Shown: piece after piece, positions 31,642 through 42,121 of the stretch | How the letters are laid out: the number at the start of each line of letters is the position of its first letter | How positions within the stretch are numbered: position 1 is the stretch's first letter | Source of the DNA: Syntrophales bacterium | GTDB taxonomy: Bacteria; Desulfobacterota; Syntrophia; Syntrophales; UBA2210 | Assembly (NCBI GenBank): GCA_963662405.2 | Contig: CAXXKT010000002.1 | Coordinates: forward strand, 64,001 to 128,000 | Direction: 5' to 3' | Length of the DNA: 64,000 bases | Translations under genes and position numbers: made by a program | Notes under the pieces: generated by a model | Seen by the model: only the letters and a program-made list of their open reading frames with translations | Database searches by the model: none | Told to the model about the DNA's origin: nothing

Positions 31642-32994
31642 ATGAACAAAAGGATTCTCCTCATCAATCCCTGGATACATGATTTCGCGGCCTACGACCT
31701 CTGGGCGACGCCGCTGGGTCTCCTCTCGCTTGCCTCAACATTAAAGAGAAACGGGTATGAGACGACATTGATCGACTGTCTGCGTCCCCTGCACCCCTCC
31801 CTTTACCATCGAATGGGAATCCGCCTACCGAAGCGGTTTTCCAGCGGAAGGGGAAATTTTCTCAAAGAAGAGATCCCGAAACCGGAGACGTTGAAGGATA
31901 TTCCGAGGAGATACAGCCGTTACGGGATACCTCCCGCCCTTTTCGAGGGAAATCTTCGCGCCATACCGCGACCGGATGCCGTCTTTGTCACATCGATGAT
32001 GACCTACTGGTACCCGGGCGTGGTTGAGACGATATCGGCGGTCCGCCGTGTTCTTCACGATATCCCCGTCGTCCTGGGAGGAATCTATGCCAGCCTCTGC
32101 ACCACGCATGCCGAGCGGCATTCCGGCGCGGATATCGTCATTGCAGGAGAAGGTGAAACGTATCTCCCTCAAATACTGCACGATATTTTCAACGACGCAC
32201 CTCTCTTTGTCCCGGACAGGGGTGATCTTGAGTCATACCCCTTCCCCGCCTTTGAACTCCTGCCCGCAAGAGGACATGTCTCCATCATAACATCAAGGGG
32301 GTGCCCTTTCAGATGCACCTACTGTGCTACCCATGCATTGAATGGGGATTTCAGGGTCAGGGCTCCCTTGGCGGTCGTCGATGAGATTACCTTCTGGAAA
32401 AACAAATTCGGGATCACCAACTTTTCCTTTTACGATGACGCCCTCCTCGTTGGATCAAAGGAACGCGCCGTTCCGATGTTGGAAGAGATTTTGGACAGAG
32501 GTCTTTCTTGTAGCTTCCACTGTCCCAACGGTCTCCACCTCAGAGAGATGGACGGACAGCTGGCATCTCTGATGCTCAGGGCGGGCTTCAAAACAATCCG
32601 TTTCGGATTCGAGACGGCACGAACCAGCCGCCAAATCGCAACAGGGGGTAAGATAACCAATGAGGAGACAAAGGATGCAGTCGCTGCTCTATTAGAAGCG
32701 GGTTACAATGGACACGATATCGGGCTGTACATCTTGTGCGGACTTCCGGGGCAGGACCCTGACGAGATACGTGAGAGCATCTCCTTTGCCCGATCATGCG
32801 GGGGCAAGCCCGTGATTACGGAATTCTCGCCCATACCGGGGACGCCGATATGGAAAGAGGCGGTGGAGACATCCCCCTACGATATAGAGAACGAACCCCT
32901 CTATCACAACAACACCCTCCTCCCCTGTCGCGGGAAGGACTTCTCTTATGGCATGTATGAGGAATTGAAAAATCTTACGAGGGGATCGAACTGA
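31642..32994 (+). CDS. B12-binding-domain radical SAM protein
   Basis: ILLINPW, VVLGGIYASL, SRGCPFRCTYC (CxxxCxxC). Confidence 0.88.
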   Translation: MNKRILLINPWIHDFAAYDLWATPLGLLSLASTLKRNGYETTLIDCLRPLHPSLYHRMGIRLPKRFSSGRGNFLKEEIPKPETLKDIPRRYSRYGIPPALFEGNLRAIPRPDAVFVTSMMTYWYPGVVETISAVRRVLHDIPVVLGGIYASLCTTHAERHSGADIVIAGEGETYLPQILHDIFNDAPLFVPDRGDLESYPFPAFELLPARGHVSIITSRGCPFRCTYCATHALNGDFRVRAPLAVVDEITFWKNKFGITNFSFYDDALLVGSKERAVPMLEEILDRGLSCSFHCPNGLHLREMDGQLASLMLRAGFKTIRFGFETARTSRQIATGGKITNEETKDAVAALLEAGYNGHDIGLYILCGLPGQDPDEIRESISFARSCGGKPVITEFSPIPGTPIWKEAVETSPYDIENEPLYHNNTLLPCRGKDFSYGMYEELKNLTRGSN

Positions 32995-33031: not shown

Positions 33032-34168
33032 TCAAAGCATTTCAAGATAGGCCTCAATACGCACCCGGAGTTGCTCGGTATCGCTTTCCGCATAATCGGT
33101 TTCGAGATGGAGGGTGGGAAGATCGGTCTTCTCCTGGACAAACTCGGCTATCTGATAGGCCTCCACATTATAGGTATGACAGGCCTGCCACGTCAGATCA
33201 ATAACGCCGTCGACCGAGAACTCCCGGATCATCTCGTACAACAGATCGAGACGACCGGTGTTGGGGGTCATCACCGAACAGGGTGTTGAGAGATACTGGT
33301 CCGCCAGGGCATCCATGGGATCATTCTCTTCATTTACGGAAAAGGTCTGCTTATAGCCGGAGCAATTTTCGAAGGTGACAACATCCGCCCCGGCCTGTTC
33401 CACTATCTTCACGACCTTGTCGCTCCCGATTCCGACGGGGACGCCGCTCAGGAGAATACGCTTGCGCGCCACCGGTGTATCTTTCCTCTCGAAGGAAGCG
33501 TTTTTGATATCGGCCGTTATTGTCTCCATGAGATGGATCCCCTTCTCCTTGTCCGCGAGAAAACCCACTCTGAAGAGAATTTCGAGGAGGAGAGACCCAC
33601 TCATCAACGCAGGAGTGGCTTTGTTCAGATCCATGAGAACTTTTTTTGCCCTCCGCTCCCGATTCATGAGGTGAATGGCGTCACGCAAACGTGTCTCGGT
33701 AATTTCAATTCCGGTCACGGTCTCGACAACCCCCTTGAAACGCACGAGCTCTCTGCGCCAAGGCTCCAGGGCCGTTGCATGATCCTGACACTGGGGAAGT
33801 TGGAGGACATGGGTCGGTTTGTAACGTGCGAGTAACTCAAACATCTTCTTTTTTCCGTCACAGGTTGTGTCTCCTATGACTATGTCGGAAAACCAGAAGT
33901 AAGGGCAGGTATCAGTCAAGGCAGAACCGAAACTGCTCTTAATTAAGTGACAGAGGTTCCGCGGCAATATCTCCTCTGCTGCCGCGATCGGATCATTCCT
34001 TGTCCCGCACAGTGAAAACGGCATTGCCCCGGCTGCCACGGCAATCTCACGCGGTGAATACAGACAGTAAAAACCAATGGCCGCACGACCATCGGCCTTT
34101 GCCTGCCGTATGTCGTCCAGATTCTCTTCACTAACGCGCTGAATTCTTTCGATTATAGCATGTATCAT
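33032..34168 (-). CDS. Double-cubane cluster protein / 2-hydroxyacyl-CoA dehydratase-like reductase, short (YjiM-like) form
   Basis: FYCLYSP, LCGT, LPRNLC, TCPY, TTCDGKKK, ENCSG, PCSVMTPN, ACHTY, LETDY. Confidence 0.85.
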   Translation of the reverse strand: MIHAIIERIQRVSEENLDDIRQAKADGRAAIGFYCLYSPREIAVAAGAMPFSLCGTRNDPIAAAEEILPRNLCHLIKSSFGSALTDTCPYFWFSDIVIGDTTCDGKKKMFELLARYKPTHVLQLPQCQDHATALEPWRRELVRFKGVVETVTGIEITETRLRDAIHLMNRERRAKKVLMDLNKATPALMSGSLLLEILFRVGFLADKEKGIHLMETITADIKNASFERKDTPVARKRILLSGVPVGIGSDKVVKIVEQAGADVVTFENCSGYKQTFSVNEENDPMDALADQYLSTPCSVMTPNTGRLDLLYEMIREFSVDGVIDLTWQACHTYNVEAYQIAEFVQEKTDLPTLHLETDYAESDTEQLRVRIEAYLEML

Positions 34169-34177
34169 GACACCCTT

Positions 34178-34822
34178 TCAATTGCTGGTTGATGAATTTG
34201 TATATGTATCGGCACTTGTATTGCTGGTTCCTCCGGTCGTTTCGCCACGTATCAACTGTTTCATCCCCTTGAGTGCGGTGATGGTCTTTTCCGGTTTCAG
34301 AAGATATCCGTCAGTCAATTCGAGACCTGCCATACCACCGCCAATCATCTCGAAGAATATCCGCTGCGCGCCAATGGAAAAATCTCGGTATCCGGGACTG
34401 TATCGCCGTGTCGCGCACAGTCCACGAGATTTGCAGTCATTGGTGATCCGCTTATCCATTTTTTTGATCACGTCTTCAATCAAAAAACTCCCTATCCTGT
34501 CCAAGATAAACCCGCGGAAAGTCTGGTGCTGTTTCAGGTACTCCCGCGAGCGTCTCTCCAAGTCCCCTCCCAGTGAGGTAGCAAAAAGCCATACCTGTCG
34601 AGTATCCGACAGGAGGCGTACGAGTGTCTTGCTTTCTTTGGCATACGGATCAAATTGGGCATAGAACTCTTCAATATATAATCTTTTTTCCCATGTTGTC
34701 ACCGAAATGAGCGTAAGGGCTTCCCGCCAGAGTTTCTCTGCCTCTTCACGCGTCCGGGAATTTTCCTCCACCTGCAGGTATCGCGAGACGTGTCTGTCAA
34801 ATATGAGATGTTTTTTCTCCAA
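34178..34822 (-). CDS. Stand-alone B12-dependent methionine synthase activation-domain-like protein
   Basis: FATSLG, ILDRIGS, RRYSPGYRDF, LKPEKTITA; TTG start. Confidence 0.75.
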   Translation of the reverse strand: MEKKHLIFDRHVSRYLQVEENSRTREEAEKLWREALTLISVTTWEKRLYIEEFYAQFDPYAKESKTLVRLLSDTRQVWLFATSLGGDLERRSREYLKQHQTFRGFILDRIGSFLIEDVIKKMDKRITNDCKSRGLCATRRYSPGYRDFSIGAQRIFFEMIGGGMAGLELTDGYLLKPEKTITALKGMKQLIRGETTGGTSNTSADTYTNSSTSN

Positions 34823-34831
34823 GGAAGCACC

Positions 34832-36439
34832 TCATCGGGGGTAAGCGGACCGGAGCAAGGCCTTCTGCACCAATCTCAAGGCCGCAATGGCATCTCTGCC
34901 ATACCCCTGGGCACGTATATCCGTTGCGATGTGCTGGTTGGCGGCAGCACCACCGATAAAGACGGAAACATCCTCAAACCCGGATGATCGTAATTGTTCA
35001 ATTACTTCCGCCAGCTGCCTTCGGGCGGAGGTAATAAATGCCGATAGGCAGACCACGGATACCTGTTGAGAGGCAACCACTTCCAAAAATTGCTCCGCGC
35101 TGACATCGACCCCCATGTCTACGACATTGATATTATGAGACTCTAATATAATTCTTACCAGGTCTTTCCCGATTTCATGAAAGTCACCCCTGACCGTGCC
35201 AAGGGCGACTTGCGGCGATGAGGACTCTTTTGGAGCGGCGACGCAGGTCTCCAAGGCCTTGAAACCGCTATAGAACGCATCCGTAACCATCAGCATTTCA
35301 GGAAGGTAACAGAGCTTGGACTCATACCTTCCGCTCGCCTTGCGGACCGCCCGCATGAGTCCCGCATTGACCAGAATAAGTGGATCGGCTCCTTTTTGAA
35401 GGGCATGATCGACCAATTCCGGGACCCGTTTCTCCTGTCCCGTGTGGACTTCCTCACCCAACATCCGGAGCACACCCGCATGGAATCCTATCTCGGTGAG
35501 GCAACGCCGTCCCGATTCCACAAAATCGACTATATTCTCAATCGGCGTTGCGGGAGGAAGAGCACAGCCGGTACTCAGTGTAAAGTTTGTTCGGACTCCC
35601 GCAGTTTCGACAAGATCCTTGACGGCTGCAGTCACCCTTTGAGATGAACCCATCTCAACTATCTCCGGGTCCACATTTCCGATGATCTGGACTGACTCAG
35701 GGAACAAATCTTCAACAACCAAGAGGTTCATGCACTGGTCAAGACTGATTCCGTCCGCACCGGTCGCTATCATCTGATCGATAACCGGCGTCGTATCACC
35801 GCATACGTGGAGAAATTTCGCCACGGAAGGAGAGGTGTCAAAAACCGCGCGAAGGAATTCTCCTGCAAAACGCTCAAAATCATCGGGGGGCAGGAGAGAA
35901 GCCAGCGGATCCGATATCCAGAGCAGATTCGCACCCGAATCCAAGAGATAGCGGCTATATTCCTGTGCAGAGCAGGTTATCCGTACAAGGAGATCGCGGA
36001 TTTCTTCCGGTCGCGCAATTACGCCGCGGAGGATCTCTTTTTCTCCTATCAGCTGGCCTGCCACGGTAAACGGCCCATGCGTGAGGGCGGCTATATGTTT
36101 GTGGGGGAACACCCTGTTCATATAACGAACAACTTCACCATTGATGCGCATTCTTTCAACATCGTTCGGTCTTTTGGGTGATGCAATACACCGGGCAGGC
36201 TCCGCGACGGAGGGCATTGCATCGGGACAGTAGCTCACCCGGGCTCCCAGCACCTCCGCTTGAATCGTGACATCACCGAAAAAAAACAGGAGGTCCGCAT
36301 CAATCCGCTCATAATACCGTAAAACCGCCTCGCTCTTGATCGCTGCATCCCAGCTGATGCGATCAATACCCTCCGATACACATTGGGCTGATGGCAGGGC
36401 ATTGATGGGAAACACCCAATCGTGAAACCTGTTTTTCAT
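34832..36439 (-). CDS. MtaA/CmuA-type (URO-D fold) methyltransferase fused to a cobalamin-binding module
   Basis: GPFTVA, HVCG and STGC Zn-ligand motifs, GNVDP; C-terminal helical cap plus GDFHEIGK (DxHxxG), LSAFIT, IGGA. Confidence 0.85.
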   Translation of the reverse strand: MKNRFHDWVFPINALPSAQCVSEGIDRISWDAAIKSEAVLRYYERIDADLLFFFGDVTIQAEVLGARVSYCPDAMPSVAEPARCIASPKRPNDVERMRINGEVVRYMNRVFPHKHIAALTHGPFTVAGQLIGEKEILRGVIARPEEIRDLLVRITCSAQEYSRYLLDSGANLLWISDPLASLLPPDDFERFAGEFLRAVFDTSPSVAKFLHVCGDTTPVIDQMIATGADGISLDQCMNLLVVEDLFPESVQIIGNVDPEIVEMGSSQRVTAAVKDLVETAGVRTNFTLSTGCALPPATPIENIVDFVESGRRCLTEIGFHAGVLRMLGEEVHTGQEKRVPELVDHALQKGADPLILVNAGLMRAVRKASGRYESKLCYLPEMLMVTDAFYSGFKALETCVAAPKESSSPQVALGTVRGDFHEIGKDLVRIILESHNINVVDMGVDVSAEQFLEVVASQQVSVVCLSAFITSARRQLAEVIEQLRSSGFEDVSVFIGGAAANQHIATDIRAQGYGRDAIAALRLVQKALLRSAYPR

Positions 36440-36454
36440 GAATCGACCCCCTTC

Positions 36455-37186
36455 TCAGCTGAGCGTTCGAGTTATCAGGAGTAGTGCCAGGATAAAAAGA
36501 AAGCCGTTGGCGATCCCTTTGAATCTTCCGTCTGACACATTTTGACACACCATTGCACCGCACCACACCCCCAGTAAAACAAAAGGGGCCATGCAGATAT
36601 TCAGACGGAGGAGAGTCCAGGAAAAGAGTCCCATTGCCTGATACGCCAGGAGCAGGCATAAATTGGCAATAAGGAAAAATGCTTGCAGATCCGCCTTAAA
36701 CCCATAGCGATCTGAATGGATTACCGTGTTCAAGACGATCACCGGCGGACCGGGCATATAGACGGCACCCCCCAATATACCGGAGAGTCCCCCCGCCGTA
36801 ACGCCCCACCCCCAATGGACCCGTCGTTTCTGCAGGATTGAACTCCCTTTTGTGATGGACCACAGGGCGAATCCACAGAGGGTAACCCCGATAATAAGCT
36901 TGAGCACCGCATCCGGGAATCGGGACAGGGCAGCCAGCCCCAGAGAGACACTCGGGACAAATCCCCCAAGCTGCGGCCAGATCCGACGGAGTCGGATGTG
37001 TGAACGCAACTGTATGAGCAGAATGATGTTGATCATCACGGTATACACGAACAAAAGAGGGATAATCTGCCGGATAGGCCATATAAATGACAACAACGGG
37101 ATGGCCACCATGGTAAAGCCAAAACCAAAGAGCCCCATCAGGATACTGGCAAGAAAAAGAGTAATGATCACAACCGCAAGATCCAT
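36455..37186 (-). CDS. TauE/SafE-family (sulfite exporter-like) membrane protein
   Basis: GLFGFG, GILGG...GPP, about eight hydrophobic segments. Confidence 0.8.
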   Translation of the reverse strand: MDLAVVIITLFLASILMGLFGFGFTMVAIPLLSFIWPIRQIIPLLFVYTVMINIILLIQLRSHIRLRRIWPQLGGFVPSVSLGLAALSRFPDAVLKLIIGVTLCGFALWSITKGSSILQKRRVHWGWGVTAGGLSGILGGAVYMPGPPVIVLNTVIHSDRYGFKADLQAFFLIANLCLLLAYQAMGLFSWTLLRLNICMAPFVLLGVWCGAMVCQNVSDGRFKGIANGFLFILALLLITRTLS

Positions 37187-37933
37187 TCAGCTCACGCCCT
37201 CCAGAAGCACATGGATCCGATCGCACAGCTCCAGAAAAGCCGGGGAGTTCTTCTCACGCGGTCGCGGTAGTGTACACTCCAGTATCGCCTGGATACGGCC
37301 GGGCAGTCCCTGCATAACCACCACCCGATCGGCAAGCAGAACCGCCTCCGTGATATCGTGAGTTACGAAGATAATCGTTTTCCGGTCAGTCTTCCATACA
37401 CGCACCAACTCCTGCTGCAGCGCAAAACGGGTCTGGGCATCCAGGGCACCAAAGGGTTCGTCCATGAGCAGCACCTCGGGTCTGGCGGCCAAGGCACGGG
37501 CCACAGCAACCCTCTGTTGCATACCGCCGGATAATTCTGCGGGGTAAGTATCCTCATGATCGGCAAGTCCCACCAGTGAGAGATAATACCGGGCCTTTTT
37601 TTTCCGTTCGGCTTTTCCAATCCCCTGTACCTCCAGGCCAAAGGCCACATTCGCCAGTGCTGTACGCCACGGGAAAAGCGTGTAACGCTGGAATACCACA
37701 CACCGGTCCGACGATGGTCCGTTAACCGGCCGTCCGTGGAGCGTGATACGGCCGGCAGTAGCCTTCTCCAGACCGGCAATAAGGCGCAAAGCGGTGGTCT
37801 TACCGCAACCGGAACGTCCGACGATGCAGACGAACTCGTTTTCCCCGATAGTCATCGAGATGCCGCCCACAGCCTGGATATCATGACCGTTGGTGGTTGA
37901 ATAGACCTTTGTAACATTGTCCAGTTCGAGCAT
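37187..37933 (-). CDS. ABC transporter ATPase, SsuB/TauB/NrtD-like
   Basis: GRSGCGKTT, LFPWRT, LSGGMQQR, MDEPFGALD, VTHD. Confidence 0.92.
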   Translation of the reverse strand: MLELDNVTKVYSTTNGHDIQAVGGISMTIGENEFVCIVGRSGCGKTTALRLIAGLEKATAGRITLHGRPVNGPSSDRCVVFQRYTLFPWRTALANVAFGLEVQGIGKAERKKKARYYLSLVGLADHEDTYPAELSGGMQQRVAVARALAARPEVLLMDEPFGALDAQTRFALQQELVRVWKTDRKTIIFVTHDITEAVLLADRVVVMQGLPGRIQAILECTLPRPREKNSPAFLELCDRIHVLLEGVS

Positions 37934-37936
37934 ACG

Positions 37937-38770
37937 TTATCCCATTCTTCTCCAAGTCAATTGCGTCTCCAGTCGGCGAAATCCATGATCCATGGCAAAA
38001 CCGATAATGCCGATGGTCACCATCCCGGCGACGATGATGTCGGCACGCATGAGCTCGTACGCGTACCAGATCAGATACCCAAGACCGGAACTGCTGCCCG
38101 GCATCATTTCAGCCGCAACCAGGCACATCCACCCGATACCCAAGCCGACACGAAGACCGGTAACCACCAGGGGCAGGCTGGAAGGGATAAGGACCTTCAT
38201 CAGCAGTGACCATCTGCGAGCTCCCAAGGTACGTGCCGACTCGATGTACTCTGGCGGAATCTGCTGCACCCCTTGGATCGTATTGAGGAGAATCGGGAAG
38301 AAGGCCCCGATGAAGATGATGATCAGGGTGGAAAACTGAATCCCGGACCAGATCGGGCTGGTAATCAAGAAAGGAAACCAGTCCGCGATGCTGTGGATAC
38401 CCAGCCAGGCAAGGATCAGCGGTACCCAGGCCAGGGGGGGGATAGGCCGTATTATCTCAATCGTGGAGCCCATGAACTGATTGAACGGTCTGTAATACCC
38501 CATGGCCAACCCCATGGGTACCGCGGTGATCACGGCCAGCGAAAAACCGAGCACGACTCGGATAAGACTGACAGCCATATTTTCAAAGAGACTGCCGGTA
38601 ATGAGAATCTTTGTTGCGGGATGCAGAAGGAGCACCGCCACGTCATCGAGCCGGGGAAGAATCGTCTGTTTGTTCAGCCATAGCGCCAATATCTGCCACA
38701 AGGCCGCCAGCGCCAGTGGAAGCAAGACGTGATTCGAGTGACGGAGGATGCGTTGTCTCAAGTTAATCAA
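37937..38770 (-). CDS. ABC transporter permease, SsuC/TauC/NrtB-like
   Basis: RPIPPLAWVP, ESARTLGA, WMCLVAAE. Confidence 0.9.
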   Translation of the reverse strand: MINLRQRILRHSNHVLLPLALAALWQILALWLNKQTILPRLDDVAVLLLHPATKILITGSLFENMAVSLIRVVLGFSLAVITAVPMGLAMGYYRPFNQFMGSTIEIIRPIPPLAWVPLILAWLGIHSIADWFPFLITSPIWSGIQFSTLIIIFIGAFFPILLNTIQGVQQIPPEYIESARTLGARRWSLLMKVLIPSSLPLVVTGLRVGLGIGWMCLVAAEMMPGSSSGLGYLIWYAYELMRADIIVAGMVTIGIIGFAMDHGFRRLETQLTWRRMG

Positions 38771-39942
38771 AGAATAATACCCCTTGCCTCCAGTTGCTTG
38801 CGGGCTTTTTTCATCAATCCGAAATCAAAGCTTTTCTCCTCCATGGTCTCCCCGTGGAGGCCCTTCAGCTTCCCTTCGAATATCCCCATCTTGTCCATGG
38901 TCTGTGCAAACACATCCACACTCTGCCGCCATGTCTCGCTGGGAATCGTGGTGTAACTCATACTTTGCATGGCCACCGTCTCCACCGATACCGGTACCCC
39001 CAACCAGGACGAACAAGCCTGTGCGGTAAGATCCTTGCGTGTGTTGCTCATCTTGACCCCCAGTGCCATAAGGGAAAGGACCCGAACGACCAGTTCGGGA
39101 TCACGGGCCATGAAGGATCCGGTCGCCTCAAGCGAACAACAGGCATGTCCCTGCCAGCGGCTGAGCGGCGGCACATCCTGCAGATTCAGGATCAATCGCC
39201 CTACACCCCGGTCAATGGTGACGGCGGGGAAAGGCTGAGCACCGATAATCGCTTCGGTAATGCCGTTGCTGAGAGCAGCCACGAGGTTGCCGTGCCCCTT
39301 CATATTGATAAAAAGAATATCGGCCTTCCTGTTCGATGAATCCTCGGTATAGGAAATCCCCTCATGATCCAGCGCCGAGCGGAAGATGATGGCAGATACC
39401 GTGTGAGGCCCCGGCATGCCGATCTTGAATTGCCGCCCCTGGTTTTTCACAGAGGATACGAAGGATTCCCAGTCTTGTATGGGTTGCTCCTTATTGACGA
39501 CGAAGACATTTCCGGCGGTCTGGAGGGGAGAAATGATCTTCGTGTCGACTCCTTTATCTACCGACATCAGAATGGCCTGCGTACCGCTGATGGCCATATC
39601 GACACTCCCCTGTGCCACCAATTTTTCCACATCAGACCCCTTTTTCGCGGGGACCATCTGTACGCGTGCAAGGACGCTTCCGTTGTCGCAAAGCTCATAA
39701 AACTTGGTATCGGTGAGCGGTTTCAACCACATCTTGTACTCCTGTTCAAAAAGCTCACCGTGCATGCCGGCAACCATGAGAGGAGCATGGTGGTCGGAGA
39801 GAATGTAGCCCAGACGAATAGTGGGGACGCTGGACCATGCCCTCTTGGCATTGAACAGGCCAACTCCCAAGGGGGTGGCCGCTGCACCCACGGCGATTGA
39901 TCCGGCGGTCTTTATAAAACTCCGACGCGTGATTTTTTTCAT
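38767..39942 (-). CDS. ABC substrate-binding protein, SsuA/NrtA-like, with Tat signal
   Basis: MKKITRRSFIK twin-arginine motif; GYILSDHHAP; QPFP; HACC. Confidence 0.85.
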   Translation of the reverse strand: MKKITRRSFIKTAGSIAVGAAATPLGVGLFNAKRAWSSVPTIRLGYILSDHHAPLMVAGMHGELFEQEYKMWLKPLTDTKFYELCDNGSVLARVQMVPAKKGSDVEKLVAQGSVDMAISGTQAILMSVDKGVDTKIISPLQTAGNVFVVNKEQPIQDWESFVSSVKNQGRQFKIGMPGPHTVSAIIFRSALDHEGISYTEDSSNRKADILFINMKGHGNLVAALSNGITEAIIGAQPFPAVTIDRGVGRLILNLQDVPPLSRWQGHACCSLEATGSFMARDPELVVRVLSLMALGVKMSNTRKDLTAQACSSWLGVPVSVETVAMQSMSYTTIPSETWRQSVDVFAQTMDKMGIFEGKLKGLHGETMEEKSFDFGLMKKARKQLEARGIIL

Positions 39943-40067
39943 TGGGCAACTCCTTTCTGAATCTTTTTGCTCTTTATAGCGTATTCGGAATACGAATGAA
40001 TCATGGGACATACATATGGGAGTGGACTGACCATCAGTTCAAACAAATCAATAATGAGGTATGATGC

Positions 40068-40820
40068 TCAGACCAGTTCCGATGCCAGGAGAGCCGCACC
40101 CAAGGCTCCAACCAACTGAGGGTCTTCGGGAACAAGAATGTTCCGTTTCAACTTTTCCTGAAGCAGTGCACACATGCAGGGGTTCCTGGCAACGCCACCG
40201 GTAAAGACGATAGCTCCTTCCGACGAGACGCGATTGATCATACTCCCCGCCCGCCGAATCACGCTGCTGTGCAATCCGAGGGCGATTTCACGCCTGTCTT
40301 GCCCTTTTGCGATCAGGGAGGTGACCTCGGACTCAGCGAATACCGTGCACATGCTGGAGATATTGAGTCCCTCCTCCGCCATGAGCGCTTCCCGGCCAAA
40401 AAGCGTGAGGTCATAGCCAAGGGTCTTGGCCATGACCTCCAGGAACTTCCCGGTGCCGGCGGCACAGCGATCATTCATCTCGAACTTCTTTATCTTCCCG
40501 TTTTCCTGCATGGCTATGGCCTTACTGTCTTGCCCTCCGATATCGAGAACCGTCAAGGCGTCGGGGAAAAAGGCACGTGCCCCCCTGGCATGGGCCTTGA
40601 TCTCCGTGACCGTTGGCATATCAAAGAAGGTCTCGCACAGGTTTCGGCCGTAGCCTGTGGCCATGATGCGATCGTACTCAACCCCGTCAAGCATCTTTTG
40701 GGCCTCCTCCACGGGATCGAAGCCGGTGTCTGCCTGGAGGCTGAGAGTAATTTTCCCTTCTTTATCCACGACAACCAACTCTATCGTCCGTGAGCCGATG
40801 TCAATTCCCGCAAAGCGCAT
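40068..40820 (-). CDS. ATP-dependent [4Fe-4S] activator (HgdC/BadF/DCCP-reductase-like ASKHA ATPase)
   Basis: GIDIGS, ATGYGR, DIGGQD, MNDRCAAGTG, SSMCTVFAESE, TGGVA. Confidence 0.92.
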   Translation of the reverse strand: MRFAGIDIGSRTIELVVVDKEGKITLSLQADTGFDPVEEAQKMLDGVEYDRIMATGYGRNLCETFFDMPTVTEIKAHARGARAFFPDALTVLDIGGQDSKAIAMQENGKIKKFEMNDRCAAGTGKFLEVMAKTLGYDLTLFGREALMAEEGLNISSMCTVFAESEVTSLIAKGQDRREIALGLHSSVIRRAGSMINRVSSEGAIVFTGGVARNPCMCALLQEKLKRNILVPEDPQLVGALGAALLASELV

Positions 40821-40843
40821 ACTGAAACAACCTTTCCCGCAAT

Positions 40844-42121
40844 TTAACGTAACTGCTCTATAAAGGCCTCTATTCTGGTCTTCAACTGGCCGGCATCCTC
40901 CATACTATAGTCGGTCTCGATACGCAGGCAGGGGATATCAGCCGCTTCGAGAGCATTCTCGACCGGTATAGATTCCATGAGATAGGGCTGACAGAACTGC
41001 AGACCATAGTGGATCACCCCATCCGCCTTATATGTGTCAACCATCTCCTGGATATGCCTCAGGCGGTCGGGATTGGGGGTAAAGATTGCGCAATCGACCC
41101 TGAAATAACGGTCAACGATGGCGTCAATCATCTCGTCGATGTCTGTTCCCGATTCATCCGTTAAGTTGCGGCATCCACGCTCTCCCACGCAAGACTCCTC
41201 GCCCACGATCACCGCACCTGATGACTCAACAATGGTGGGAAGTTTCCAGTTTGGAACCGCCTGAGGACATCCTGAGATGATGATACGTGGTGTCTTTTCC
41301 GAGAAGACGCCTTTTTTATCATTGATTCTCCGTTCCAATGCATCACAGATCTTGTTTAGCGATTCTGTGAAGCGAGCGGGGTTGTCATAAAAGGAGACCT
41401 GATTGGCCAAGAGGGCGTCCAGACCCGATATTGGTGCCGGATTTGCCGTGCGAAGGGAGGCGAGTCGGTGGAGGGCCGCCCGTTTTGCGTTGACTGCCCG
41501 GATCCCCTGCCCCAATGATTCAGGGGTGATAGCAGTGCCGGTCAGGGTTTCAAGGGCTTTCATGAAACGGTTGTATTCGGCCTTCAGAAGCTCCCGCCCC
41601 TGCTCGGATTTTACCTGTGGAAGATCCATGACATAGAGCCCATTCACCAAGTCCCCCAAGGATTCATATGCCTTCTTTTTCCCATCGCAGGTATTCTCGC
41701 CGACAATCATGTCAGCACATTCCAGATAGGGACAGACCCTGCCGAGTTTAAACCCGAACGATGACTTGATCAGGGCACAGGTATTGCGGGGCAGGAGTCT
41801 TTCCACATCCTCCATGGCAAAATCGGCTCCCGAACAGAGTCCCACTAACGTGGCATGAGCGGCAAGGACAATCTCCTCGGGCACAAAGACACAGTATGAA
41901 CCGACAATTTTACGCCCCCCCTTCTTCTCATCCAGCAATTCTTTGATCCTCAGGCCATGGATCTCACTCATGACAAAATCGAAATAGGCCATCTCTTCCG
42001 GACGATCTTTCTGCGACAGGAAAATATCCTGATAGGCGTTATTCAAAACGCCCAGCAGGGCATCATGGCCATCGAGGTCAAGTCCGAGCGCCGACCACAT
42101 GGAACGGTAATCTTCATTCAT
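40844..42121 (-). CDS. Double-cubane cluster protein / 2-hydroxyacyl-CoA dehydratase-like reductase, long form
   Basis: SYCVFVPEE, GLCSG, LPRNTC, VCPY, NTCDGKKK, EESCVG, DCAIFTPN, QFCQPY, IETDY; AAGGAGG RBS. Confidence 0.88.
   Translation of the reverse strand: MNEDYRSMWSALGLDLDGHDALLGVLNNAYQDIFLSQKDRPEEMAYFDFVMSEIHGLRIKELLDEKKGGRKIVGSYCVFVPEEIVLAAHATLVGLCSGADFAMEDVERLLPRNTCALIKSSFGFKLGRVCPYLECADMIVGENTCDGKKKAYESLGDLVNGLYVMDLPQVKSEQGRELLKAEYNRFMKALETLTGTAITPESLGQGIRAVNAKRAALHRLASLRTANPAPISGLDALLANQVSFYDNPARFTESLNKICDALERRINDKKGVFSEKTPRIIISGCPQAVPNWKLPTIVESSGAVIVGEESCVGERGCRNLTDESGTDIDEMIDAIVDRYFRVDCAIFTPNPDRLRHIQEMVDTYKADGVIHYGLQFCQPYLMESIPVENALEAADIPCLRIETDYSMEDAGQLKTRIEAFIEQLR

Follow-up and report, generated by a model that had tools for sequence, protein, structure and literature searches.

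Nine co-oriented genes on the minus strand of a Syntrophales bacterium genome (positions 33032-42121 of the 64,000-nucleotide stretch analysed here, the window, which is G000:C2:64001-128000 of the 3.8-Mb, 100%-complete genome G000) unite in one cassette two double-cubane cluster proteins (DCCPs), an orphan binding protein with a predicted zinc site and a methyltransferase of the sulfur/selenium type. We tentatively favour, with slightly less than even confidence, the reading that this cassette scavenges selenium from an imported methylated selenium compound and yields selenide. A fuller version, in which the DCCPs are selenium-mobilising reductases and the cassette is a complete organoselenium route with a selenium-dedicated zinc-site importer and a new fused corrinoid enzyme reactivated by S-adenosylmethionine (SAM), strikes us as possible but rather doubtful.

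In order, the genes encode a long DCCP, an ATP-dependent activator, a binding protein, an ATP-binding cassette (ABC) permease and ATPase, a TauE/SafE-family membrane protein, a methyltransferase-corrinoid fusion, a stand-alone methionine-synthase (MetH) activation domain and a short DCCP. An earlier note on this DNA, made from the letters alone, had described nine tightly spaced open reading frames in this order with no CoA-transferase or CoA ligase among them, and both observations hold: the intergenic gaps, in gene order, are 23, 125, -4, 3, 0, 15, 9 and 9 nt, Pfam and NCBIfam scans agree with the family list for all nine genes, and neither a CoA-transferase nor a CoA ligase was found within the nine-gene cluster.

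A tie between DCCPs and selenium and the use of methyl-selenium by MtaA-like clusters are already in print; what is new here is the architecture. Our literature search, which left subscription journals mostly outside its reach, found no paper on this architecture, and loci of this kind may be listed in the supplementary material of PMC10418091 or in that of the preprint by Haft and Gwadz. The natural substrate of DCCPs was called unknown in PMC7317905, and the accessible text of PMC11971306 still calls their function unknown. The cassette makes this question testable: with three parties in one cassette, a ligand screen on a single soluble binding protein could name the substrate for all of them. 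If the selenium reading is true, DCCPs would gain their first natural substrate and selenium its first dedicated transporter, no such transporter being known in any organism as of a 2024 study (PMC11097638, available portion), and the cassette would bear on how anaerobes recycle methylated selenium.

Double-cubane cluster proteins and their activator

Both reductases, HGD-D proteins by family, exceeded the NF040772 cut-off of 350 bits, the long, class I-like DCCP (425 residues, 40844..42121, minus strand, as are all nine genes) with 470.5 bits and the short, class II/YjiM-like DCCP (378 residues, 33032..34168) with 475.4 bits. The long copy aligned to PDB 6ENO with 459 bits across residues 4-423. 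Seven cysteines in each protein (77, 96, 115, 145, 311, 344 and 377 in the long copy; 35, 54, 73, 103, 269, 297 and 330 in the short copy) align with those of 6ENO and are kept in 77 of 80 rows of the DCCP tree alignment. The printed NF040772 motif, applied as a strict pattern, matches neither reductase, and the short copy has five residues fewer between Cys5 and Cys6. Following the class I/class II division of PMC7317905, the long DCCP carries the N-terminal extension that is a class I feature, while the short DCCP aligns to 6ENO from 6ENO residue 60 on and thus has no such extension, like the class II protein YjiM.

The claim that these proteins are DCCPs and not 2-hydroxyacyl-CoA dehydratases was borne out by the family cut-off, by the seven retained cysteines and by scores far below the dehydratase cut-offs. 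An identity as acyl-CoA dehydratase or benzoyl-CoA reductase was rejected on scores of 99 and 107 against 700 for HadC, 90 and 89 against 454 for BzdN, and 36 against 750 for HadB. By family, both reductases are true DCCPs, for which binding of an [Fe8S9] cluster and ATP-driven reduction are predicted. The adjacent ASKHA-type, DCCP-R-like activator (250 residues, 40068..40820) scored 222 bits with TIGR00241 (cut-off 125.4); its Cys119 and Cys158, kept in 14 of 14 matches, are likely ligands of a [4Fe-4S] cluster.

G000 also encodes a separate and distant HgdAB/Bcr-like pair with its own activator (G000:C1:1985013-1988209). The pair itself (G000:C1:1985013-1987415) is 22-28% identical to the cassette reductases, and in its beta-type subunit, which may hold a double cubane as BzdN does, Cys occupies six of the seven DCCP columns.

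The methyltransferase-corrinoid fusion and its reactivation partner

The fusion (535 residues, 34832..36439) joins an MT2 methyltransferase domain of the UroD fold to a C-terminal corrinoid domain (PF01208, PF02607, PF02310). Its Zn triad His211/Cys213/Cys292 aligns to that of MtaA (4AY7) and is kept in 105, 105 and 106, respectively, of 107 fusion homologues, the rest being gapped; a His-Cys-Cys triad is the mark of S/Se methyltransferases. A further conserved Cys236 and the corrinoid-domain residues Asp419 and His421 are also present. The family is discrete, comprising 107 clusters at 41-60% identity (excluding the query itself) that make up a single clade in a 42-row tree (34 family, 8 outgroup), and it contained no characterised, named member. 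The MtaA/CmuA model TIGR01463 scored 103 against a cut-off of 235.4, no stand-alone Mlp was found at E 1e-40 among the 8000 candidates of the fusion search, and G000 has no second UroD-domain match at E 1e-6. An MT2 domain and a corrinoid domain in one chain are also the layout of CmuA.

Immediately downstream lies the stand-alone SAM-binding activation domain (214 residues, 34178..34822), which is weak in Pfam (E 4.5e-4) and whose family profile matched only PDB 1J6R (E 3.8e-17). In methionine synthase, the MetH activation domain is established to move a methyl group from SAM to cobalt. The genome gave no match to RACo/RamA (PF14574), for which a Methanosarcina control was positive. Given this absence and the MetH-type domain next to the fusion, the corrinoid of the fusion is likely reactivated by SAM via that domain. 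The predicted complex of the corrinoid domain with the MetH-type domain scored 0.51 against 0.00 for the best control, with runs agreeing in at least 79% of contacts and a partner predicted local distance difference test score (pLDDT) of at least 87. The complex-score mark was reached by 116 of 157 solved pairs and 2 of 215 mismatched pairs, but those reaching it with a score no higher than 0.60 were just 18 of the 157 solved pairs and both of the passing mismatches; the value could reflect likeness to methionine synthase and is given little weight.

Elsewhere in G000, a trimethylamine-methyltransferase-like region (G000:C1:2111075-2118616) contains a corrinoid gene and another stand-alone MetH activation domain, and given the lack of a RACo match the organism seems to rely on MetH-type reactivation. 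At one other locus (L005:13518-15960) the cassette methyltransferase is interrupted after about 90 residues by an opposite-strand pair of corrinoid and UroD-like genes; a full-length homologue (P0016) is recorded on a contig of equal length.

A binding protein with a predicted zinc site

The binding protein (391 residues, 38767..39942; PF13379, NMT1-like) has a NitT/TauT fold and a twin-arginine signal. Its start is most likely at 39942, which includes the twin-arginine motif, and 14 of 14 homologues share the motif residues R6, R7, F9 and K11 without variation. The family is wide and without a characterised member, with 67 representatives at E up to 1e-30, and extends outside the phylum to Moorella and Tindallia. 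His51 is kept in 128 of 130 homologues, and Cys268 and Cys269 in 124 of 130, the other six being gapped there; in a profile alignment these residues coincide with the His and Cys-Cys of 3UN6. A narrow profile of the family found no PDB sequence, and a broad profile did.

A model built from 38 sequences (pLDDT 92), which replaced an earlier one from 14 close sequences (pLDDT 69), had the zinc-bound structure 3UN6 as its top Foldseek match (E 3e-20). VIA-align superposed 290 residues of the two with a Z-score of 33.1 and an rmsd of 2.3; the CmpC regulatory domain was tied with it (Z 33.6), and 3UN6, CmpC and NrtA (31.8-33.6) scored above SsuA and TauA (27.6-28.2). The earlier note had called this an Ssu/Tau-type importer, a description that stands for the fold class but fails for the SsuA family, whose model TIGR01728 gave 52 bits against a cut-off of 163.5. 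A sulfonate-type (SsuA/TauA) binding protein was rejected on this score and on 3UN6 being the nearest solved structure instead. We predict that His51, Cys268 and Cys269 form a zinc site. Related binding proteins hold zinc through two Cys and one or two His and have no known ligand, as described in the accessible part of PMC13592312; we infer that such a site would suit a soft sulfur or selenium anion.

The permease (277 residues, 37937..38770; PF00528) had SaoP as its best NCBIfam match, with 176 against a cut-off of 295; the ATPase (248 residues, 37187..37933; PF00005) scored 253 against 360 with the SaoA model, and the binding protein 22 against 300 with SaoX. Permease Cys216 is kept in every cassette homologue compared and lies three residues before the Cys/Sec column of SaoP (a true SaoP in L070 was used for comparison), an offset that rules it out as the SaoP gate residue. 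The TauE/SafE-family protein (243 residues, 36455..37186; PF01925, E 1e-27) is an optional member of the cassette. Neither it nor the binding protein has a paralogue in G000 at E 1e-6.

Two features of the wider Cys-Cys family were also noted. In six members (P0119, P0137, P0141, P0151, P0161 and P0165) the first half of the profile matches the C-terminal half of the protein, which looks like a circular permutation. Distant homologues in L110, L113 and L116-L119 have no adjacent permease or ATPase.

A modular unit recurring across loci

Distinct loci were obtained by pooling searches (including sets of 13 loci and of 29 loci, 20 of the latter with a true fusion) and removing duplicates; several locus contigs end early. 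At 24 distinct loci with a close binding protein, the permease is present in 24, a short DCCP in 22, the fusion in 21, the MetH-type domain in 15, TauE in 13, the activator in 11 and a long DCCP in 10. All nine genes occur together in four of them (the window, L011, L013 and L029). Viewed from the fusion (35 distinct loci), the MetH-type domain is adjacent in 27 of 33 scorable loci and a DCCP lies within 8 kb in 21 of 28. The neighbourhood survey thus upholds the linkage of DCCP, importer and methyltransferase that the earlier note had predicted, and the fusion adjoins this importer in 21 of 24 loci, in several gene orders and with gaps of a few bases.

The single pathway also proposed there fares less well, since TauE is present at only 13 of 24 loci, seven of 28 loci have no DCCP within 8 kb, and the fusion is found with four importer types. 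The three others comprise a second NMT1-type importer, whose binding protein has three conserved Cys, and importers of the phosphonate and the branched-chain amino acid type; importer types are scattered over the methyltransferase tree. Conversely, a short DCCP and the importer occur without the fusion in L109, L112, L114 and L115; among nine loci of distant binding-protein homologues with long flanks, three (L109, L112 and L114) have a short DCCP but lack the fusion. What recurs is a set of three modules and not a single fixed operon.

The cassette occurs rarely and in a patchy pattern, consistent with horizontal movement or repeated loss. Five of 400 genomes of the phylum (one split false match dropped) and six of 351 genomes of one order contain the fusion, and a search with this query found no orthologue in 40 relatives from the same genus, family and order, whose best matches were 22-36% identical. 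All four phylum-sample genomes with a close binding protein also carry the fusion. Cultured strains bear the cassette (the records behind L002, L008 and L011, the last with all nine genes); Desulfatitalea alkaliphila, Desulfosarcina variabilis and Desulfatibacillum alkenivorans are among the cultured carriers.

Among the alternative importers, the second NMT1-type binding protein (L006:14855-15943, with homologues in L007, L027, L032, L040-L042, L066 and L067; only 21% identical, three conserved Cys) lies beside the same methyltransferase and replaces or accompanies the Cys-Cys importer. In L063 and L065 a second fusion copy, with no MetH domain or DCCP, stands ahead of a branched-chain amino acid type ABC importer, where the substrate could possibly be an amino acid such as a Se- or S-methyl amino acid.

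Selenium genes in the neighbourhood

Selenium markers (SelB, SelD, YedE, YedF, DUF3343 and HesB-Se) were identified by NCBIfam and Pfam in the fetched flanks of 24 cassette loci (L034 included, the 2.7-kb L010 excluded). A selenium gene was found at eight of these 24 loci, against a background of 2.0%, the share of G000 that lies no more than 10 kb from one. In L009 and L011 the directly upstream gene is YedF or HesB-Se, and in L038 the importer and methyltransferase stand beside SelB and HesB-Se with no DCCP. G000 itself encodes SelA, SelB, SelD, tRNA-Sec, YedE and YedF, and SelA was present in all five fusion-bearing genomes checked.

Close homologues of the long DCCP are found in 89 of 301 phylum genomes. 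In a control set of 40 long-DCCP loci, hand-picked down the ranking for length of contig sequence, a selenium gene was nearby in 17 (13 on a stricter reading) and the cassette in none. In the DCCP tree, long DCCPs from cassette loci are spread over several branches, suggesting repeated joining of the cassette with a selenium-linked module. The window's short DCCP falls outside the subtype that usually precedes the binding protein; it groups with short DCCPs of selenium-gene loci (L121, L122, L139 and L006), and this subtype is close to methyltransferase genes in the window, L033 and L006. In L121, L122 and L139 a long DCCP and a short DCCP of the window's subtype lie beside selenium genes; their partners there are a ModA-like binding protein, a sugar-type ABC importer or an FmdE-domain gene.

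Published work points the same way for the DCCPs: in the available text of Haft and Gwadz (10.1101/2022.07.06.499078), 955 of 970 high-scoring DCCPs come from SelD-bearing assemblies, and the selenium genes of Slackia include such dehydratase-like and activase genes (PMC5322559, accessible portion). On the methyltransferase side, ClMlp2, a distant relative of the fusion, methylates selenide faster than sulfide (PMC10418091), and the Methanococcus corrinoid systems (SdmABC) mobilise dimethylselenide, according to the part of PMC11097638 available. Overall, the selenium link is strong for the DCCP and moderate for the importer and methyltransferase, for which it consists of repeated co-location and L038. 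The earlier suggestion of a methylated organosulfur or organoselenium substrate remains plausible, the His-Cys-Cys zinc triad being kept, with the qualification that the context favours selenium over sulfur.

A proposed route and its alternatives

Starting from the observed gene content, families, ligand residues, conservation and neighbourhood, we propose the following route. Methylselenolate, methylseleninate or another soft selenium anion would be captured by the binding protein at its His/Cys/Cys zinc site and brought into the cell by the permease and ATPase. The activator would then drive the DCCPs, whose family is established though their substrate here is conjectural, to reduce oxidised forms, with their Se-O, Se-Se or Se-S bonds, as far as selenol or selenide. 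The fusion, by virtue of its triad, might next take the methyl group off selenium onto cobalt and then hand it to a thiol or sulfide within one active site, on the model of MtsA acting on methyl sulfides, and the freed selenide would pass to SelD and selenoprotein synthesis; MtsA and MtsD/F/H are precedents for such one-site methyl exchange (10.1101/548461, available part). Oxidised cobalt would be reactivated by the MetH-type domain, assigned by family, with SAM. The weakest step is the last, in which TauE, a dispensable member, may export a methyl-sulfur by-product or excess.

Several observations weigh against this route. Selenium-gene neighbours occur at seven of 10 cassette loci with a long DCCP and at one of 14 without, at none of seven fusion loci with other importers and at none of nine loci of distant binding-protein homologues, and in the window no selenium gene lies in the 12-16 kb around the binding protein; the selenium link may therefore belong to the long DCCP alone. 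The markers were chosen after the neighbours had been seen, and several marker queries were drawn from these very loci; a single genome serves as background, and the loci, being kin, are not independent. SelA is present in 177 of 189 phylum genomes, which makes co-occurrence at the genome level uninformative. No selenocysteine (in-frame TGA) was found at Cys positions of the cassette genes and homologues examined, and the His-Cys-Cys triad does not separate sulfur from selenium. Substrates, direction, co-transcription and the role of TauE are all inferred.

The same counts (one of 14, none of seven) lend themselves to a reading in which this chemistry acts on sulfur, on a methyl-thioether or thiol such as methanethiol, methylmercaptopropionate or S-methyl amino acids, and selenium neighbours follow the long DCCP only. 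MtsD/F/H, which act on methanethiol and dimethyl sulfide in the available text of 10.1101/548461, have this fused MT2-corrinoid architecture, TauE belongs to a sulfite/sulfonate exporter family, and the alternative importers include one of the branched-chain amino acid type. We nevertheless consider sulfur unlikely: no sulfur-assimilation, methyl-tetrahydrofolate transferase or Mar genes recurred among the scanned cassette neighbours, L038 links importer and methyltransferase to SelB without a DCCP, the scattered long-DCCP branches suggest repeated joining with the selenium-linked module, and high-affinity sulfur uptake would probably be of little use in sulfide-rich habitats.

It is improbable, in our judgement, that the cassette is a mosaic without a shared pathway, in which importer/short-DCCP, methyltransferase and selenium-linked long-DCCP modules merely ride on a mobile block and the ligand is perhaps a metal, an organo-arsenic or an organo-mercury compound. 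Each module is found alone, the methyltransferase tree shows importer swaps, two relatives differ from G000 by insertion or loss of the block, and Haft and Gwadz, in the accessible text of their preprint, read Cys-Cys binding proteins beside DCCPs as organometallic transport. Chance assembly sits poorly with the methyltransferase and importer adjoining in 21 of 24 loci in several orders with few-base gaps, and with the fusion being found in all four phylum-sample genomes that have a close binding protein when only five of 400 carry it.

Marginally less probable still is the reverse direction, in which selenide or another metalloid is methylated by way of SAM, the MetH-type domain and the corrinoid, with TauE exporting the product for detoxification or homeostasis. 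The MetH activation domain does move methyl groups from SAM to cobalt, no methyl acceptor enzyme recurs in the cassette, and transfer from methylcobalamin to selenide works in vitro for ClMlp2 (PMC10418091). The methyltransferase is nearly always found beside a binding-protein-dependent importer, which fits acquisition over disposal, however, and TauE is present in only 13 of 24 loci; SAM-driven turnover would presumably also need an electron in each cycle, at considerable cost.

Least probable is that the DCCP/activator pair supplies low-potential electrons to reactivate the corrinoid and so takes the role of a RACE/Ram enzyme, an alternative raised in the earlier note: the missing RACo/RamA match, the closeness of the window's short-DCCP subtype to methyltransferase genes in three loci and the BzdN double cubane, which serves only electron transfer and storage in the accessible part of PMC11971306, speak for it, but the MetH activation domain is the steadier neighbour of the fusion (27 of 33 loci, against seven of 28 with no DCCP within 8 kb), a short DCCP accompanies the importer without the fusion in four loci, and the long DCCP stands without the cassette in 40 of 40 sampled loci. 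Reductive C-S cleavage akin to that of methylthio-alkane reductase, also suggested at first, found no evidence at this locus.

Comparison with known systems

The cassette reductases resemble the DCCP/DCCP-R pair of Carboxydothermus hydrogenoformans (6ENO, 7YYL) in passing the family cut-off, in their seven Cys, in the adjacent ASKHA activator and, for the long copy, in the channel-closing N-terminal extension. They differ in pairing a class I-like and a class II-like copy with one shared activator, and in sitting with an importer and a corrinoid methyltransferase.

Type 1 mlp clusters (Kountz and Balskus, PMC10418091) and SdmABC share with the cassette an MtaA-like His-Cys-Cys enzyme and a corrinoid, in the case of the mlp clusters likewise in non-methanogens; methyl-selenium use was proposed for the mlp clusters, and DCCP genes were noted in many of them (PMC10418091). 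The cassette has one methyltransferase fused to its corrinoid domain, whereas the mlp clusters have two or three separate Mlps; it has a MetH-type domain instead of a Ram/RACE activase, and a dedicated importer and DCCP are its core neighbours. It therefore falls outside the type 1 mlp definition, apart from sharing the His-Cys-Cys triad, yet works like that cluster type. The MtsD/MtsF/MtsH proteins of Methanosarcina acetivorans, and MtsA/MtsB, likewise combine MT2 and corrinoid and could in principle use one site for both half-reactions, as far as the available text describes them. The fusion is set apart from MtsD/F/H as a separate family scoring below TIGR01463, with no coenzyme M context and a MetH-type reactivation partner.

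The SAO system, as described in the accessible part of 10.1101/2022.07.06.499078, has a NitT/TauT-class importer, a Cys-Cys binding protein, a Cys-bearing permease, adjacent DCCPs and a selenium context in common with the cassette. Unlike SAO, the cassette scores below the SaoX, SaoP and SaoA cut-offs, has no selenocysteine and no SaoB/C/D/E/L/T, and places its permease Cys three residues off the SaoP Cys/Sec column; the available description of SAO includes no corrinoid enzyme. Staphylococcus aureus 3UN6 and the clade B proteins associated with carbon monoxide dehydrogenase (PMC13592312, accessible portion) resemble the binding protein in fold, in His and Cys-Cys, in their unknown ligand and in having an orphan metalloenzyme as neighbour. 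Identity to 3UN6 is 17%, and the cassette protein has twin-arginine export, an extra D-H-H, insertions, and a DCCP and a methyltransferase as partners. MarHDK methylthio-alkane reductase is similar in ATP-driven low-potential reduction at a complex Fe/S cluster and in proposed chalcogen scavenging. Its fold is nitrogenase-like, as opposed to ASKHA plus FldB/C, and Pfam and NCBIfam found no nitrogenase-like H, D or K subunits among the nine genes; nor did the analysis yield evidence that a DCCP cleaves C-S or C-Se bonds.

Genomic setting and further observations

The 125-nt gap between the activator and the binding protein could leave room for a promoter, and a single transcript is thus only predicted. 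Promoter and terminator scans of the window were at chance level (9 against 8.9 and 9 against 9.2, respectively), an Rfam scan gave no match at the gathering score and hence no cobalamin or SAM riboswitch in the window, and a comparison of 18 upstream stretches found no common motif beyond close kin.

On one side of the cassette lies a convergent B12 radical SAM gene, and on the other a small divergent membrane gene accompanied by two M16 peptidases. In two of four relatives examined (G020 and G014, of the same family) these flanks adjoin with nothing between; in the other two the right flank fell outside the compared stretch. The nine-gene block is therefore an insertion here or a loss in two relatives. 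The convergent B12-binding radical SAM gene (31642-32994, plus strand) is present in four of five relatives, is ancestral to the site and lies outside the cassette.

YedE and DUF3343 repeatedly have as neighbour a gene of carbohydrate-kinase type (weak PF01256), namely in L008:15170-16081, L029, L031, L126, L139, L154, L155 and G000:C3:555549-556445; it may be an unnamed gene of selenium metabolism.

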